This document shows, piece by piece, positions 1-15,504 of a DNA stretch of 15,746 nucleotides. Each line of letters opens with the position of its first letter. Positions within the stretch are counted from its first letter, which is position 1. A model generated the notes under the pieces. It saw only the letters and a list, made by a program, of their open reading frames with translations, made no database searches and was not told the DNA's origin. Origin of the DNA: a virus (taxonomy: Duplodnaviria; Heunggongvirae; Uroviricota; Caudoviricetes); the IMG/VR virus record IMGVR_UViG_3300048590_001376. The stretch is one strand, 5' to 3'. The translations under genes were made by a program, and so were the position numbers.

Positions 1-368
1 CCATTGCGGCCAGGAATCGCGTTCGCGGCGGCGGCGTTGGTGCCAGACCCGGCGTCGTCGTCGACCACTTCCCAGCCAGGGCTGTTGGCGGCCTGCTTGG
101 TGATCCGCACCAGTTCCGCGAACCGCTCGACCAGGACCGATTTCTCGGCCTTGCGGCCTTGCGGCTTGAATGACATCGACACGCGGTAGGCGTAACCGCT
201 GCCATTGATGGCGATCGGCTCCGGCGTTCGCTTGTGGCCGCTCGGTATCCATTGGCGACCGCGACGGCCAGCCATGGCGCGGCTGACGATGCGGTCGATC
301 TGCTTGCGAACGGCGTCCGGGCGAAGTTGACGGGCGGAATGCTTTTGCAGAGTGAGGCTGTAAGCCAT
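1..368 (-). CDS. Hypothetical protein, 3'-truncated by the window edge (MAYSLTLQKHSARQLRPDAVRKQIDRIVSRAM...)
   Basis: Read manually: ATG at 368 preceded by AAGGGA, and the frame stays open for 122 codons to position 1. It is missing from the ORF track because no stop falls inside the window. Confidence 0.75.
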   Translation of the reverse strand, partial: MAYSLTLQKHSARQLRPDAVRKQIDRIVSRAMAGRRGRQWIPSGHKRTPEPIAINGSGYAYRVSMSFKPQGRKAEKSVLVERFAELVRITKQAANSPGWEVVDDDAGSGTNAAAANAIPGRN

Positions 369-419: not shown

Positions 420-800
420 TTAATTGAGCCAGAACAAAATGGCATCGCGAAACTGGCCAGCGGTCTGCTGGCGAATCTCGGCAGACAGATGCGTGCGGCG
501 CCCAATCTCGGCAACGACAGCTTGGACTGTGGTGATCGCTGCGGCCGTGGTGATCGGATCGAGCGTCAACCATGGCTGGCGAGCGGTGACGGAATACTTG
601 CATCGCGGCCCATAGATCAGGGCCAGATGTTCGATGGCCACCCGGCGAAGCTCGCGAAGCGACAGCTTGCGATAGTCGACCTGGGCGGGCATCGGCTTGA
701 CGGTGCGCTTGAGAGCTTTGACGTAGCGGCCGGCGAGTTTCTTGCGAATCTCGGCCTGCACGTCGTTGACGGATAGGTGGTTGTGGTTGAGACGTTTCAC
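420..800 (-). CDS. Hypothetical basic protein (126 aa)
   Basis: GTG start overlaps the stop of the upstream gene (GTGA, 797-800), same orientation as neighbours. No recognisable family. Confidence 0.7.
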   Translation of the reverse strand: MKRLNHNHLSVNDVQAEIRKKLAGRYVKALKRTVKPMPAQVDYRKLSLRELRRVAIEHLALIYGPRCKYSVTARQPWLTLDPITTAAAITTVQAVVAEIGRRTHLSAEIRQQTAGQFRDAILFWLN

Positions 801-1030
801 TTCGCCAGCTCCATTTTTACTTGCTTGACCGAAGAGGCAGTTCGCAAATCGTCAAGCAGATTCGATGCGTTAATCCAATCGCCATAGACCACAAACGAGT
901 GGCCCATCCGATCAACCCATCGAACGGCATACGTTGGATTCAGTGCATCGCGGTACGGCTTGCATTGACGATCGCCACGGGCCTTGGCAGTGATGCGGCG
1001 GCCGGCGCGAATAGTGGTACTTTTCTTCAT
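797..1030 (-). CDS. Hypothetical small basic protein (77 aa)
   Basis: SD-like AAGGGAG before the ATG at 1030; translationally coupled to the next gene. Confidence 0.7.
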   Translation of the reverse strand: MKKSTTIRAGRRITAKARGDRQCKPYRDALNPTYAVRWVDRMGHSFVVYGDWINASNLLDDLRTASSVKQVKMELAK

Positions 1031-1044
1031 TTCGTTCTCCCTTG

Positions 1045-1995
1045 CTTAATGAAAAGGATGCGAGGTTGTTCAACCACGCGGCCCGGTGCCAGGTGGGTGA
1101 ACACTCTCGCATCTACTTGGAAGGTAGATGCGTAGGTGGTCGATTTGATCTGTGGTGTTGCACTTCGGTCCCGTCGTTTATCCCCTGCTAGTTCTGGCTC
1201 TCTTTCCCAGAGAGCATCGGGGAACGTCATTCACGACTGGTGCCGCATTCCTACCGCCATGGTTCCCATGGCTAGCAACGCTGGAAGCACTACTCGGCAG
1301 CCCGGTGTTTTTAATGCTCGGTGGCATTCATTTATGGATGGGCTCGGCTTTCGTGCGGACATGGCGACTGGCGCCGTTCAGTCCGTTGCGAAGGATCGAT
1401 TGATCCGTTTGGGTTTGTGCTATCGGCATCGCAGAGGCGAGAGGGAGATTCGCCCGGTGCCAAGTGTGCGGCTTGGCGTTGGGCTCTTGCATTCTCGCGG
1501 GCGGCTTCGACTGACTCTTTCCCCGTAGGTACTCGTGCGACATGCGGCTGGTGCGATGCTACAGATTCGACTTTTGTTTGGCGTCACTTCCACGACGCTA
1601 TTGTCTGGCGATCACTACTCGCCAGCTTTCGCCCTTCGTTTTTGCTCATCGGCTAGGTCGCGCCGACTGGGGGCTACTCGCAAGTCCCGCCCGTTCTGCT
1701 GCTCGTTTCGCTCGCAATCAGTGATTCCAAGATCAGGGTAAGGCGATGATTCGCCAGAGACGCAATTCTCAGCTCGGGTTGATGCACATCAGCCCGGCCC
1801 CCCTGCTCGGTTTTGATTAACTAAGACGCGCTGGCAATCGCCCAGAACGGTGAGACTGACGGGCTGTTCGGGTGAACGTACTGGAAAGACTAGGTAAAGA
1901 CCAGGAACCCATCGGCCCCATGATCGTTCTGGACTGGGGCAGGTAATGGCCATAAGGAAATTTGGCCAAAGGGAAGTTAGATTGTCAAAGAACTG
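1045..1995 (-). ncRNA. Candidate large structured non-coding RNA or very long structured leader (boundaries approximate)
   Basis: No credible ORF, and at least 10 hairpins visible by eye (1108-1132, 1198-1214, 1256-1272, 1452-1484, 1581-1598, 1605-1625, 1649-1666, 1742-1755, 1775-1796, 1915-1940). AGUA/GAA loop-E-like motifs and a cUACGg tetraloop are present. It lies directly downstream of a predicted promoter. Confidence 0.5.
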
Positions 1996-2029: not shown

Positions 2030-2147
2030 GCCCTGATTGAATATTTTAAGTCGTTGCCACATAAGGGTTTATGGCCTGATTTTTGGGCCTGAAAGCGGCT
2101 TTTCTGGCCAATTTCGACGCGGCCAGCGTTTTTGTGGTATCTGTACA

Positions 2148-2846
2148 CTACCTTTTCTGGTTCGCCTGTCCACTAATCAACCCCTTCAATCTCTCTGCCA
2201 CCCTGCGCGCCTCGGCGCTCGACGCCCCGCCATGAATCGAAGCCTGGAGCCAGTGGACCAGTCGCGCGGGATCGCTGATCGTCGCCCATCGCCAGAGTCG
2301 CAGGCCGGCGGGAATGACCGATGGCCGCAGTGCGCGGACCCAGCGAGCCAGAGCATCGGGCTCGGCTGGTGGCCCGGCGCCAGGCAGCTCGAAGCACTCG
2401 GCGGCCGGCGGTGCTGGGATCGGATAGTAGGTGAGGCAGGTAACGACGGGCGCAAATTTGGTCGGCTGGCGACTGCGATAAAACCGCCGGCCGCCGCACC
2501 AGTAGCACGGCACGGTGCCAACTGGGGCTCGCTTGGCGCTAGGATCCGGCGGAACCGGCAGTGATTCGAACCACTCGTTGAGGTCGTCGACGCGCGGGAT
2601 CGGTTGCTGCCAACCATCGGGCGTGGCGATCAGCAGCCGACGAACCATGGCCTGGGACTTCGGCGGCTGGCAGGCGAGGCAGGCGACGTGGCGGTAGGCG
2701 TCCTGCCAGAACTCAAATGCTCCGCAGGTGGGGCATGGTGCTGCCGCGTCTTCGGGGGCGAGTACGGCGGTGCCAGCGGGTGCGGTCAGTGTTTCGCCGA
2801 GCGCCGCACGCTTGGCTCGCATTTTTTCGAGGAGATCGAGGGGCAT
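2148..2846 (-). CDS. Hypothetical protein with two Zn-ribbon-like repeats (232 aa)
   Basis: CPTCGAFEFWQDAYRHVACLACQPP and CYWCGGRRFYRSRQPTKFAPVVTCLTYYP, joined by Pro-rich linkers. Confidence 0.75.
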   Translation of the reverse strand: MPLDLLEKMRAKRAALGETLTAPAGTAVLAPEDAAAPCPTCGAFEFWQDAYRHVACLACQPPKSQAMVRRLLIATPDGWQQPIPRVDDLNEWFESLPVPPDPSAKRAPVGTVPCYWCGGRRFYRSRQPTKFAPVVTCLTYYPIPAPPAAECFELPGAGPPAEPDALARWVRALRPSVIPAGLRLWRWATISDPARLVHWLQASIHGGASSAEARRVAERLKGLISGQANQKR

Positions 2847-2943
2847 GGCAGATGACTCGCGACGATTGAAATAAATTGACGTTTATATGTTCGGCCTGAA
2901 TTTAGGTCCGGCGACTCACGATCTGGCCGATGAAGCAGTACAG

Positions 2944-3291
2944 GGAACACTCTGGCGCACAGGCGGCGCACACTTAGCCGTAATTCAACCAGTTTGTGGT
3001 AAAGAGCTTACGTAATACTGTTCCGTCTGTGCGCTCCACGACGCAAAAAACAGAGACGCATGGGAAAGAAATTGAAGAATTAAATAAATTGAGGAATTCA
3101 TCCGTCTGAATTTTTGAATTTATGAATTTGTTATTTTTTCGCCGTATGGGGGTGCTAAGTGTATAGGACAGACGGTACAGTGACGTAAGTAGTAGTAGTA
3201 GTAGTAGTAGATTACTAACTAACTAACTACTACTACTATACTTATTCATTACTCAGTGTTTTGACTTAAGGCCGTTCCATCACTGTGCGCC
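2944..3291. other. Putative replication origin region (AT-rich, iteron-like repeats)
   Basis: Sits just downstream of the helicase-like gene. It contains CTGTGCGC-like motifs x4 in both orientations, CCGTCTG x3, tandem TGAATTTN x3 (3107-3130), an AT-rich core and an (AGT)n/(ACT)n inverted microsatellite. Confidence 0.5.
3188..3238. repeat. Inverted simple repeat (AGT)7AG-ATT-(ACTA)3(ACT)4
   Basis: Read directly from 3188-3237. The two halves are partly reverse-complementary. Confidence 0.9.
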
Positions 3292-5087
3292 GATGTGTTA
3301 TTACAGTACACCTCAGCACCGATGAATTCATCATCTAGGTAAGGTAGGCTGACTGATATGCAATAGGAAACCTGCCCGCCAACTCGCCGCCGTGCCGTGG
3401 TTGCGCTGGGAAGCCGTTTAAGGATCTGGTCGATGCTCTTGGCTCCCCAGGCCGTATTCTTCAGTTGGTGGTCTGTGACGGCCTTGTACGCAAGAATTAG
3501 GGCCGCTTTGCCGTCGACCTTGATGCCTGATTTCGCCAGGGCTTGCTCTGCCTCGTCTCGATCGGCCGAATACTCCCCCTTGCGAACGGTTTCGATAAGC
3601 TGGGATACTGAGTAAGCTTTGCGGCCGGTGTGAATATGGGATGATAGGATAGCCCGCATAAGCTCTTTTTCGTCCTCGGATTCAGTCGCCTCGGATTCGA
3701 CCTGGATGTCACGCACCATTTCCATGAGAACTTGCCTGGCGTCGTCCGTATCGGCGTGCTGGACGGCTGCCAGCATGGAAGCAGGCACGGCGTAGCTCTC
3801 GATCGCCCGGTCACTAACGCCGGCCACGCGGACGTTCTTTAGCTGGGCGGCAATTCGCTTCGCCTGATGGATGTAGCGGATCGACACGGCCAGCATGCGG
3901 TGGCCAAAGTCATGCAGCTCATCCTGTGACGGCAGAACCAGCTTCCGCTCTTTCGGCCGGATCAGCTCCAGCATGATGAAGCGGTTGCGATCGGGCTCGC
4001 GACGCAAGTGCAGCTCCACGGCCGCCACCCAGACGATGTGATTCAGGCTGAATTCCTCGCCCTTCTGGTTGGCGGTGCCACGCAGCGTTTTGGCCCCGCG
4101 GCCGGACGTGCGGAGCATGTTCAGGATCTCTTCGCGATTGCGGCCAGCAGTGAGCCCATCGGCTTCGAACTCATCGCACAGGATGATCCGGTTGCTCGTT
4201 TTAATCACCTGCCGAATGCCGGCCGCCGAGCTTTGGGAGCTGTTGATGACGAGCTTGCCGTAGATGCCAGAGAGGAAACTGAATAGCGTCGTCTTGCCGG
4301 TGTTCGACGCACCAGTCAAAGCGACCTGCGGGCGCCAGGCCCATAACGACTGGACCCAGGTGGCCATTACGAGCCCCGCCATGACGAATGGGCTGGAAAC
4401 CTGATGCCGCCATGTCCACATGTCGAAATAGCTCTGTGCCCGGTACATCGTCTCGATGGCGAAATCTTTGTCGCACCGGGCCAGGTAGCCAGCAAGCCGT
4501 TCGAAGTCATACCAGGGCTCGGCCGTGAGCCCCAGATTTAAGATCTGGCCACGGCATCGCGGCTGATCGACGCGCTCCAGCTCCTGGGAGCCATTGAACT
4601 CAGCCGCCTCGCCGGCGCTTACGAGCACGACTGAGTTATGCTCGCGGCCTGTCTCGTCGATGCCGGCACAGCAACCCACTCCCGGCCGCGTGTAGCGGTC
4701 CAGGCGGCGCTCGTAAGAGCTGACCATGGCGATTGCCGACTTCACGTCGTTGACATCGACCAGCCCCGGTATGTCCTCCGTCTTGCGGCGGACGAGGCGG
4801 TCGCGAGCGGGCTCGCCGGCAATCATCAACAGCCGGTCGTAGCTGATTTTGTCGATGTCGCGTACTTCGTCCTCGCGGCGTCGGTGCCGCGACCAGAGCA
4901 CGACCCCGGAGTCGCCTACCTGTCCAAGCACGTCAATTTGCAGCATGTCGAGTATCTGCTTCTCTCGCGCGATCCCATCAGCCGACAGTGATTGCTCGGC
5001 TGTCGGCTGCGATGGGTCGGCGACTGGTGTTGGCGCGTAAGCCTCTGCTGCTTCGGCGAGTGCCAGCAAATCCTGATAGGTCCGCAT
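3249..5087 (-). CDS. P-loop NTPase, probable primase-associated replicative helicase (AAA+/SF3-like, 612 aa)
   Basis: Walker A WRPQVALTGASNTGKTT, SAAGIRQ motif, Walker B IILCDEFE, and position downstream of the primase. The start is set at ATG 5087 after GAAGGAACAAGG; the ORF track gives 5159. Confidence 0.75.
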   Translation of the reverse strand: MRTYQDLLALAEAAEAYAPTPVADPSQPTAEQSLSADGIAREKQILDMLQIDVLGQVGDSGVVLWSRHRRREDEVRDIDKISYDRLLMIAGEPARDRLVRRKTEDIPGLVDVNDVKSAIAMVSSYERRLDRYTRPGVGCCAGIDETGREHNSVVLVSAGEAAEFNGSQELERVDQPRCRGQILNLGLTAEPWYDFERLAGYLARCDKDFAIETMYRAQSYFDMWTWRHQVSSPFVMAGLVMATWVQSLWAWRPQVALTGASNTGKTTLFSFLSGIYGKLVINSSQSSAAGIRQVIKTSNRIILCDEFEADGLTAGRNREEILNMLRTSGRGAKTLRGTANQKGEEFSLNHIVWVAAVELHLRREPDRNRFIMLELIRPKERKLVLPSQDELHDFGHRMLAVSIRYIHQAKRIAAQLKNVRVAGVSDRAIESYAVPASMLAAVQHADTDDARQVLMEMVRDIQVESEATESEDEKELMRAILSSHIHTGRKAYSVSQLIETVRKGEYSADRDEAEQALAKSGIKVDGKAALILAYKAVTDHQLKNTAWGAKSIDQILKRLPSATTARRRVGGQVSYCISVSLPYLDDEFIGAEVYCNNTSAHSDGTALSQNTE

Positions 5088-6408: not shown

Positions 6409-6844
6409 GTTTCTCGCCCTCCTTGGGCTGGATGGCGGCGAGCACTGCCGCCAGCGACTTCTCCGCGCCGGTGGCGCGGGCGAATTCGCAGAGCCTGCTA
6501 TTCAGGACCGCAATCTCGCCCGACACGAGCGAGCTGCGGTATTTCTTGCGGACGATGCGGAACAAGCCTTCGCGATCCGCGATCGTATAAAAATCAGTGC
6601 CTCGCACGCGCTCGGCCAGCGGGTGATCCGACAGGTCGTCGTCGGCCCCTTGCTTGGCCGCTTCGGCAGTCTCACGCTGCTCGCGGCGGATGCGCTGCAC
6701 TTCCTCGTACAACAGTGGGTGATTGCTTTTCAGCAGCAAGCGGCCGTGCCCGTTTGCGCAGGCCAGGCCGCTCTCGGTGATCGAGTACAGTTCATTGCAC
6801 TGCGGGCAATGCGTCTCATGCTGCTGGCTCTTGGCCCGCGTCAT
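6380..6844 (-). CDS. Hypothetical protein with N-terminal Zn-ribbon (CPQC...CANGH), 154 aa
   Basis: SD GGAGG before ATG 6844 (MTRAKSQQ). It overlaps both neighbours. The ORF-track start at 6952 lies further inside the upstream gene. Confidence 0.7.
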   Translation of the reverse strand: MTRAKSQQHETHCPQCNELYSITESGLACANGHGRLLLKSNHPLLYEEVQRIRREQRETAEAAKQGADDDLSDHPLAERVRGTDFYTIADREGLFRIVRKKYRSSLVSGEIAVLNSRLCEFARATGAEKSLAAVLAAIQPKEGEKHVRQKVRGH

Positions 6845-7484
6845 TGGTGAATTCCTCCATGTGCTTGACGATCGTGACCGACTTGCCGCGGCCAACGCCT
6901 TCGAGCTGCACGAAATGACCGTTGTGCTGCTGGCGATAGGCTTCCAGTTCACCGAAGGTATTCAGGCCGTGCTTGCGAGCCAGCTTGGCGAGTCCTTCCG
7001 GCAGGAATTCGTCGACCTCGGCGTCGAGCACGTCGTCGCCGAAGCTGCTCAGGTCGACATTCGGCCGCTCCGTCGTGGTGCCAGTCGCAGTGGGGTCGTG
7101 GGCGATGATGCCGGCGGGAGTGGTCGTGCTGGTTGCTCCTGGCGGCACAGTCTGCTTGGCCTTGCGGGTCCGCTTTTTGGCGGCAGCCTTGGGCGGCGAC
7201 TTGCCGAGAATGCTTTCACGGACGGCCGCGGCCAACAGCCCGCGAGAGACTTCCAGTTCGACCTTGGCGTCGGCCAGCATTTTTTTCAGGTCTTTGGACT
7301 GGATGATCTTGGCTTCGATTTCCATGACCCGCTGCTCGTCCAGGCCGACCGTCTCGCGCAGTCGTCCGATTTCAGCCTCCAGCGACAGGTCTTTGACTGG
7401 CGACTCGGCAGCGGCCGACTCCTCGATCGCCTGGTTGTCACTGCCGTTGTCGCTCACACCCGCAGTTGAAATCCGCATCGTCAT
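6816..7484 (-). CDS. Coiled-coil + Thr/Pro/Lys linker + C-terminal HhH/RNAP alpha-CTD-like domain protein (222 aa)
   Basis: SD GAGGAG and ATGA overlap with the ERCC4 gene stop. C-terminus LPEGLAKLARKHGLNTFGELEAY...QLEGVGRGKSVTIVKHM has an HhH-type GVG hairpin. Confidence 0.75.
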   Translation of the reverse strand: MTMRISTAGVSDNGSDNQAIEESAAAESPVKDLSLEAEIGRLRETVGLDEQRVMEIEAKIIQSKDLKKMLADAKVELEVSRGLLAAAVRESILGKSPPKAAAKKRTRKAKQTVPPGATSTTTPAGIIAHDPTATGTTTERPNVDLSSFGDDVLDAEVDEFLPEGLAKLARKHGLNTFGELEAYRQQHNGHFVQLEGVGRGKSVTIVKHMEEFTNDAGQEPAA

Positions 7485-15475: not shown

Positions 15476-15504
15476 ACTCTAAACTAAAGTTTATTTCGTG
15501 TCAA
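15476..15504 (-). promoter_or_regulatory. Sigma70 promoter TTGACA-N17-TAGAGT, leftward
   Basis: Perfect -35 (15499-15504) overlapping the HTH gene TGA, a 17-nt spacer and -10 TAGAGT (15476-15481). Confidence 0.75.
15480..15493. promoter_or_regulatory. Putative operator TAAACTAAAGTTTA
   Basis: TAAACT-N2-AGTTTA palindrome within the promoter spacer and -10; 13/14 identical to 1998-2011. Confidence 0.7.

Follow-up and report, generated by a model that had tools for sequence, protein, structure and literature searches.

The locus examined here raises a simple question: what occupies positions 1031-2147 of a phage genome, a stretch of 1117 nt that holds no credible open reading frame (ORF) although the genes on either side of it are closely packed? 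The window, by which is meant the whole 15,746-nt stretch of DNA that was analysed, corresponds to the final 15.7 kb (70600-86345) of an 86,345-nt IMG/VR provirus record, and positions are those of the window unless another sequence is named. The 174-kb JGI contig L003 carries the identical phage, with 100% identity across the overlap, and the source is an uncultured phage, probably of planctomycete type. Nearly all of the genes lie on the minus strand, in a long co-directional array that includes every gene flanking the empty stretch. Read in the direction of transcription, the order is a primase-like protein (636 aa), a Cys-rich orphan (232 aa), the empty stretch (2147-1031), two proteins of 77 and 126 aa, and an AAA+ ATPase of 392 aa. 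With a RecD-like helicase and a PolB-type exonuclease also present, the neighbourhood is a replication/recombination block.

The three small flanking genes have positive codon scores. The upstream 232-aa protein (2148-2846, minus strand) belongs to no Pfam or PHROG family and matches only itself among 5.8 billion proteins. Downstream, the gene for the 77-aa orphan (797-1030, minus strand) is the first past the stretch and is preceded by the Shine-Dalgarno sequence GGGAG (1041-1037), with its ATG at 1030-1028. An exhaustive HMMER search with the 77-aa protein returned itself and one weak match to a repeat protein, P0124. This 1310-aa protein matches it in six separate stretches at 35% identity, so that the orphan may represent the repeat module in free-standing form. 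The 126-aa orphan (420-800, minus strand) matches only itself in the database, on 11 contigs, and the ESM Atlas gave nothing informative for either the 232-aa or the 126-aa protein. The ATPase gene, of which the 5′ part lies at 1-368 (minus strand) before running off the window, encodes a classical AAA+ protein (Pfam AAA, AAA_5 and AAA_16) with at least 268 homologues. Its AF2 model (pLDDT 84) matches ClpB-NBD2, Bcs1, Vps4 and RuvB-type AAA+ folds in a PDB fold search, with no initiator family (DnaA, Orc/Cdc6) among the top matches. One homologue, the 644-aa P0055 encoded on a 123-kb contig, contains intein-splicing and HNH endonuclease domains, which suggests that an intein has entered a version of this phage ATPase.

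The non-coding stretch is genuine and is more than a product of chance. The longest ORF on its sense strand is 71 aa, no longer ORF-free stretch exists in the 86,345-nt record, and the JGI gene caller likewise left 1031-2147 empty. The codon log-likelihood is below zero in all six frames. GC content at the three codon positions is flat (0.53-0.56), compared with 0.62/0.46/0.72 in the phage genes, and no period-3 signal is seen in any frame. Moreover, a coding score taken in sliding 150-nt windows was -0.110 for the stretch and -0.115 for dinucleotide shuffles, against +0.308 for real genes, and no residual coding signal of a pseudogene is left. Between 1021 and 2160 the only Shine-Dalgarno sequence and start codon opening an ORF of more than 16 codons are those of the real ATG at 1030, and no ORF of 30 aa or more within the stretch has a Shine-Dalgarno sequence ahead of its start. 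These ORFs gave no match at E<0.04 in Pfam and PHROG searches, and a search for tRNA and tmRNA found none. Stop-codon recoding was rejected, as every frame stays closed under each single stop reassignment. The base composition of the stretch (A.256, C.298, G.263, T.184) resembles that of the sense strand of the phage genes (.221/.294/.297/.188). The first-pass annotation had described ~950 nt without a credible ORF, and the codon score, the flat GC profile, the shuffle-level coding score and the Shine-Dalgarno scan all bear this out.

The same annotation read the stretch as a GOLLD/ROOL-like or undescribed large RNA. GOLLD and ROOL are large ornate RNAs that are often found in phages and prophages (10.1101/2024.12.08.627333; PMC5737381). 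The stretch resembles them in being phage-borne, non-coding and within the size range of several hundred to ~1000 nt; however, it differs in lacking a covariance-model match, conserved blocks and a common structure, and in folding no more stably than some coding DNA. A search of the whole window with the Rfam covariance models, which was to have picked out GOLLD, ROOL, OLE, HEARO or group I/II introns, gave zero matches at the gathering score. At E<=10 the region 800-2300 gave short chance matches to unrelated families and nothing relevant.

Folding of the 965-nt region is more stable than that of its shuffles, with z approximately -3.0 on the sense and -3.3 on the antisense strand. Among 16 coding controls of equal length from the same phage (mean z -0.84, sd 1.31), however, two reached -3.1 or lower. 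In 150-nt windows the mean sense-strand z of the stretch is -1.05 and that of the genome background -0.42 (sd 1.24), a difference of no more than ~1.3 standard errors. Local values are low at 1800-2050 and 1000-1500 and close to zero at 1400-1800, so that the non-coding body (1045-1993, minus strand; ~0.95 kb) has structured 5′ and 3′ parts and an unstructured middle. The folding signal is therefore real when set against shuffles, unexceptional for this genome, and does not pick out a strand. At least 10 hairpins had been counted, and ~11 distinct hairpins with six or more contiguous pairs are present, but this number is at chance: stems of at least 5 bp are at shuffle level (27 versus 29.8), and modest enrichment is confined to stems of at least 7 bp (8 versus 3.6, p=0.05) and to stems capped by GNRA or UNCG loops (2 versus 0.27). 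A CsrB/RsmZ-type sponge for CsrA was considered and rejected on the sense-strand counts of GGA (12 versus 16.7 expected) and AGGA (1 versus 4.5 expected).

The only syntenic relative found is L006, an 11-kb JGI contig that carries the closest homologue of the AAA+ ATPase (55-58% identity), shares a DUF6011 protein (44%) and has one further protein in common. It contains an ORF-free stretch of ~1.17 kb (2940-4109) upstream of the AAA+ gene, beyond three small non-homologous genes, and coding signal is absent there in all frames; an Rfam search of L006 2400-4300 again gave nothing relevant. Measured from a conserved 15-mer, described below, to the end of a U-tract, the two stretches span 946 nt (window) and 974 nt (L006), at equivalent positions. 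Between these ends the bodies show no detectable similarity: blastn and nhmmer with filters off found nothing, and a Smith-Waterman comparison against shuffles gave p=0.63. An RNAalifold consensus on the MAFFT alignment was essentially empty, its folding term of -40 kcal/mol over 1 kb comparing with -344 and -389 for the two stretches folded singly, and since two sequences only are compared, covariation statistics at n=2 carry no meaning. Both stretches have structured ends and an open middle. On the sense strand of L006 the local mean z is -1.77, as against -0.40 elsewhere, falling to -8 in the 3′ 250 nt, and stems of at least 7 bp are enriched (12 versus 4.5, p=0.007). As judged from this pair of sequences, the ends of the stretch are conserved or convergent and its body is unconserved.

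Taken together, the lack of an Rfam match, the unconserved body and a folding z equalled by coding controls do not support a GOLLD/ROOL-like ornate RNA. This corrects the first reading, in that length and hairpins alone do not define such an RNA; of the marks by which ornate RNAs are usually known (family match, conservation, covariation and exceptional folding), none is evident in the stretch as judged against one relative and the coding controls. The accompanying proposal of one RNA-protein unit formed with the 77-aa and 126-aa proteins fares no better. Both are orphans with no homologue in L006, and the gene that stays linked to the non-coding stretch there is that for the AAA+ ATPase.

Elsewhere, four contigs with AAA+ homologues of ~48-51% identity by tblastn or alignment (L008, L010, L065 and L066) have no long gap, so the stretch can be lost in more distant relatives. 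A blastn search of the gap against the phage GenBank collection gave no match, a genome-contig scan with the AAA+ alignment found none, and viral-contig scans with five proteins returned either nothing or loci that are non-syntenic or non-comparable (L005 and L067). L005, the only IMG/VR relative found through the C-terminal domain of the ATPase, is without a long non-coding stretch. Ahead of its ATPase gene lies a 154-aa ORF (6795-7259) with CxxC and VDHDH motifs, which by eye suggest an endonuclease VII-like protein. In L006 itself, small, overlapping ORFs rich in CxxC occupy the plus strand of the region upstream of the promoter block (2431-2940), and an ORF of 109 aa lies on its minus strand; their coding signal is ambiguous. 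The JGI annotation has a single gene there, of 46 aa, and nothing in the region resembles the 232-aa protein.

The upstream end of the non-coding unit is marked by a promoter-like site on the minus strand (2001-2029), read from the sequence as TTGTTT (2029-2024), a 17-nt spacer and TATAGT (2006-2001). The letters are as the first-pass annotation gave them, but the match is weak: TTGTTT agrees with the -35 consensus at three of six positions, the site falls below the threshold of the consensus scanner, and no promoter-like site was reported. To our knowledge, planctomycete promoters are poorly known. Over the -10 element lies a perfect 22-bp palindrome (1994-2015; inverted repeat I5, 11+11 nt, 100% complementary) that is operator-like, and a related pair of half-sites occurs at 15480-15493; these are the only two such sites in the 86-kb record. 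A promoter block of ~60 nt can be aligned between the window and L006 (TCAWTCRGGG ... GTCGAT ... TATAG ... TTTRAGT), the TATAG part of the -10 element being kept in the relative. At the upstream end of the block, TCAATCAGGG (2031-2040, minus strand) aligns with TCATTCGGGG of L006, and the spacing from there to the conserved 15-mer is 47 nt in the window and 43 nt in L006.

This 15-mer, GTTCTTTGACAATCT (1979-1993, minus strand), begins in the window where a transcript directed by the TATAGT -10 element would be expected to start. It is matched exactly at the same relative place in L006 (3109-3123), is single-copy in the record, and by our own calculation has a chance-match probability of ~1e-3 for the two regions compared. 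A DNA pattern scan of viral contigs with the 15-mer and its context gave 0 matches. The 54 metagenome-contig and 26 genome-contig matches were all unrelated, one example lying within a gene that low-GC freshwater bacteria conserve, and none was accompanied by a phage protein. That the promoter block and the first 15 nt are kept in L006, ahead of ~1 kb of non-coding DNA there too, supports the proposal of a non-coding unit starting at a promoter-like site overlapped by an operator, with transcription probably on the minus strand.

Two further ideas were set aside. A sigma-54 promoter in TGGCACCGGGC was dropped because its -12 element is out of register. In both phages a 5′ GUUCUUU could pair over a long range with GGAGAAC at the ribosome-binding site, but GGAGAAC also precedes the starts of three other genes (4 of 114 genes in all). 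At 2100-2140 the plus strand, which is antisense to every gene nearby, carries a hairpin CTGGCC...GGCCAG and, after it, TTTTTG. This has the look of an intrinsic terminator, one that would halt antisense transcription leaving the stretch rightward.

At the 3′ end, both stretches finish with a hairpin and a U-tract directly before the ribosome-binding site of the next gene. In the window this element (1048-1113, minus strand; inverted repeat I1) is a candidate conditional intrinsic terminator. The extended hairpin B has arms of 26 nt each (1113-1088 and 1082-1057, 81% complementary), directly followed at 1056-1048 by the U-tract CUUUUCAUU, a CUUUUCAUUU-like tract that ends 8 nt before the Shine-Dalgarno sequence of the first gene. 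Overlapping it is hairpin A (1108-1132, minus strand; 9 bp, loop CUUCCAA), a candidate anti-terminator that shares the segment GAUGCG (1113-1108) with the terminator stem. GAUGCG can pair either upstream with a CGCAUC, forming hairpin A, or downstream with the CGCAUC at 1062-1057, which lengthens the inner hairpin until its stem meets the U-tract. These alternatives are near-isoenergetic, at -34.5 kcal/mol for the terminator and -35.9 kcal/mol for hairpin A, a difference of 1.4 kcal/mol. Because of this competition for GAUGCG, the 3′ element could fold as a terminator or as an anti-terminator, an arrangement that, from predicted folding, would suit a terminator/anti-terminator switch.

The 3′ ends fold with z values of -4.35 (a 106-nt segment of the window) and -6.26 (L006). 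In L006 the element is canonical (GGCCCGC-CCU-GCGGGCC followed by UUUUUCGUUU, 4056-4082), 27 nt before the start codon, and has no obvious competing anti-terminator. A second canonical terminator lies in the phage record on the minus strand (G000 69590-69640; GGCCAGCTC-ACTTC-GAGCTGGCC followed by TTTTTCATTT), ~960 nt before the start of the window and ~150 nt past the stop codon of the AAA+ gene, where it would mark the end of the transcription unit. Ahead of it stands TGGCACCGGGCC, and the identical 12-mer occurs in the loop region of the 1113-1057 hairpin of the window.

The explanation that we favour, tentatively and at somewhat less than an even chance, is that the stretch is a 0.95-kb untranslated leader, which would start from an operator-overlapped promoter and end in a conditional terminator that gates the operon of the 77-aa, 126-aa and AAA+ genes. 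The transcript would start at approximately 1993-1995, from a weak sigma-70-like promoter with its -10 element inside the 22-bp palindromic operator, where a DNA-binding protein of the phage would probably turn transcription of the unit on and off. The first 15 nt (GTTCTTTGACAATCT) would form a conserved functional box, either a loading or pause site in the DNA or a 5′ element in the RNA. The leader body would be fast-evolving, with local hairpins only, and at its end the terminal hairpin would compete with the upstream hairpin for GAUGCG, thereby gating read-through into the operon. That the stretch is transcribed at all, on which strand, and that it is terminated and regulated, we infer from these elements.

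Several observations are in accord with such a gated leader: the stretch is robustly non-coding and unique in the record, it sits within one co-directional minus-strand array, and L006 holds a counterpart of similar length at the equivalent position. In this counterpart the promoter block and the exact 15-mer are kept and the body is not, the same succession of structured end, unstructured middle and structured end is seen, and a hairpin and U-tract again precede the ribosome-binding site. The closeness in energy of the alternative folds in the window and the canonical terminator past the AAA+ gene also fit. Against these stand the sub-threshold match of the promoter, in a phylum whose promoters are so little known, and the form of the window terminator, whose stem is long and imperfect and drew no call from a simple scanner; in the minimum-energy fold, no stem adjoins the U-tract. 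The competing anti-terminator is not obvious in L006, no antiterminator protein was found and the upstream 232-aa protein has no family. Furthermore, there are only two examples, which could be alike in length and architecture by chance; an untranslated leader of 1 kb would lie open to Rho, and there is no obvious reason for a compact phage genome to keep one. If the leader reading is correct, planctomycete-type phages would control a replication-region operon by an unusually long untranslated leader, and its conserved start box and switchable terminator would provide a testable handle on the control of transcription in these phages. We know of hardly any work on promoters, operators and antitermination in planctomycete phages, which to us appear essentially uncharted.

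In its layout, the logic of such a leader would be closest to that of the lambdoid pR′-leader-tR′ unit and of classical attenuators. In the lambdoid late-gene unit, pR′ is followed by a short leader (the '6S' transcript) and tR′, and Q loads at a promoter-proximal pause to give read-through (PMC9388147, PMC6606751). Shared with this unit are a putative promoter, a predicted untranslated leader and, ahead of the genes, a hairpin resembling an intrinsic terminator; a conserved DNA box at the predicted start of transcription, with -35-like (TTGACA) and -10-like (GACAAT) hexamers; and a small phage gene directly upstream. The leader here is, however, ~5 times longer (~950 nt versus ~200 nt), no Q-family protein was found, since the upstream 232-aa protein falls into neither a Pfam nor a PHROG family, and neither lysis nor structural genes lie downstream; host and sigma factor differ as well. 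The likeness is one of sequence layout, and pausing and antitermination are proposed here by analogy.

Bacterial leaders can carry attenuators in which a terminator and an anti-terminator alternate. The 3′ element of the window resembles these in its three segments, with GAUGCG pairing upstream in hairpin A or downstream in the terminator stem, and in the near-equal energies of the two states. It differs in having no recognisable leader peptide, ligand-binding aptamer or site for a known RNA-binding protein, in matching none of the cis-regulatory families of Rfam, and in that the switch is not evident in L006. Leader-encoded immunity RNAs are also known from phages, namely the CI RNA of P4 and the C4 RNA of P1 and P7. 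As is proposed here, an untranslated phage leader carries regulatory RNA elements that control transcription or translation of the operon behind it, but those leaders are much shorter and act through defined complementary repeats, whereas short repeats in the present stretch are no commoner than in coding DNA.

Among the alternatives to the gated leader, a stand-alone functional RNA of ~0.95 kb and undescribed class, bounded by the conserved 5′ box and the terminal hairpin and tolerant of rapid sequence change in its structure or function, is unlikely but deserves weight; a GOLLD/ROOL-type RNA makes up a small part of this option. The predicted ends are discrete and the lengths similar in the two phages, sense-strand stems of at least 7 bp are enriched in both, and in L006 the local folding of the sense strand is well below that of its surroundings, most of all at the 3′ end. 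The flanking orphan proteins have themselves diverged beyond recognition, so that the missing similarity of the bodies is not decisive. On the other hand, neither an Rfam family nor an alignable common structure was found, the global z is equalled by coding controls while the local mean is near background, the middle 400 nt fold at random level in both phages, and the antisense strand folds as well as the sense strand. A more specific form of the idea, a new class of ~1-kb phage RNA in planctomycete-type phages defined by the 5′ box GTTCTTTGACAATCT together with strong structure at the 3′ end, is doubtful and a little less probable again. To the same doubtful degree, its body would be kept in length and architecture rather than in sequence, and the RNA would act in its own right, for example as a scaffold, decoy or timer, instead of serving as a leader.

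No more and no less unlikely than a stand-alone RNA is a spacer, or the decayed remnant of one or more lost genes, passively co-transcribed and with selection acting on the promoter block and terminator only. The unconserved body, the shuffle-level coding potential, the gene-like base composition and the near-background thermodynamic and repeat statistics would all be expected of such a remnant. Phage genomes are compact, however, and no other long ORF-free stretch occurs in the 86 kb; moreover, a similar length is kept at the same place despite only ~55% protein identity, which is unexpected for junk under deletion pressure. The absence of the stretch from more distant relatives (49-52% AAA+ identity) was likewise counted against a spacer.

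An element acting at the DNA level within the replication module, such as an origin (possibly transcription-activated), a recombination site or a packaging site, is improbable, and slightly more so than the new RNA class. Its setting in a replication/recombination block and the promoter at the start of a non-coding region speak for it. Set against this, there are no iterons or tandem repeats, repeated 7-mers are as frequent as in coding controls (4 versus 4.1), the body has a GC content of 0.55-0.58 with no AT-rich unwinding region inside, no turning point in GC skew falls at the stretch, and the AAA+ protein models as a classical Clp/Vps4/RuvB-type ATPase rather than an initiator. The triplets CGAGTAG, CCAGTCG and CACCGGGC, considered as iterons or origin repeats, exceeded shuffles (p=0.03) but not coding controls, and MITE-like terminal repeats were dropped after the inverted-repeat analysis.

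Finally, unrecognised coding sequence, whether small proteins, a recoded gene or a recent pseudogene, is very improbable, for although the plus strand has an ORF of 130 aa and the minus strand one of 71 aa, every ORF in the stretch has a codon-usage score of zero or below, and the other coding measures, together with the equally signal-free stretch of L006, agree.

Two other apparent gaps of 700-900 nt occur in the record before the window (G000 54936-55654 and 61930-62855). Each contains a minus-strand ORF of ~245 aa in which codon usage is strongly atypical and GC is lower, and the two ORFs are probably real genes of unusual composition.
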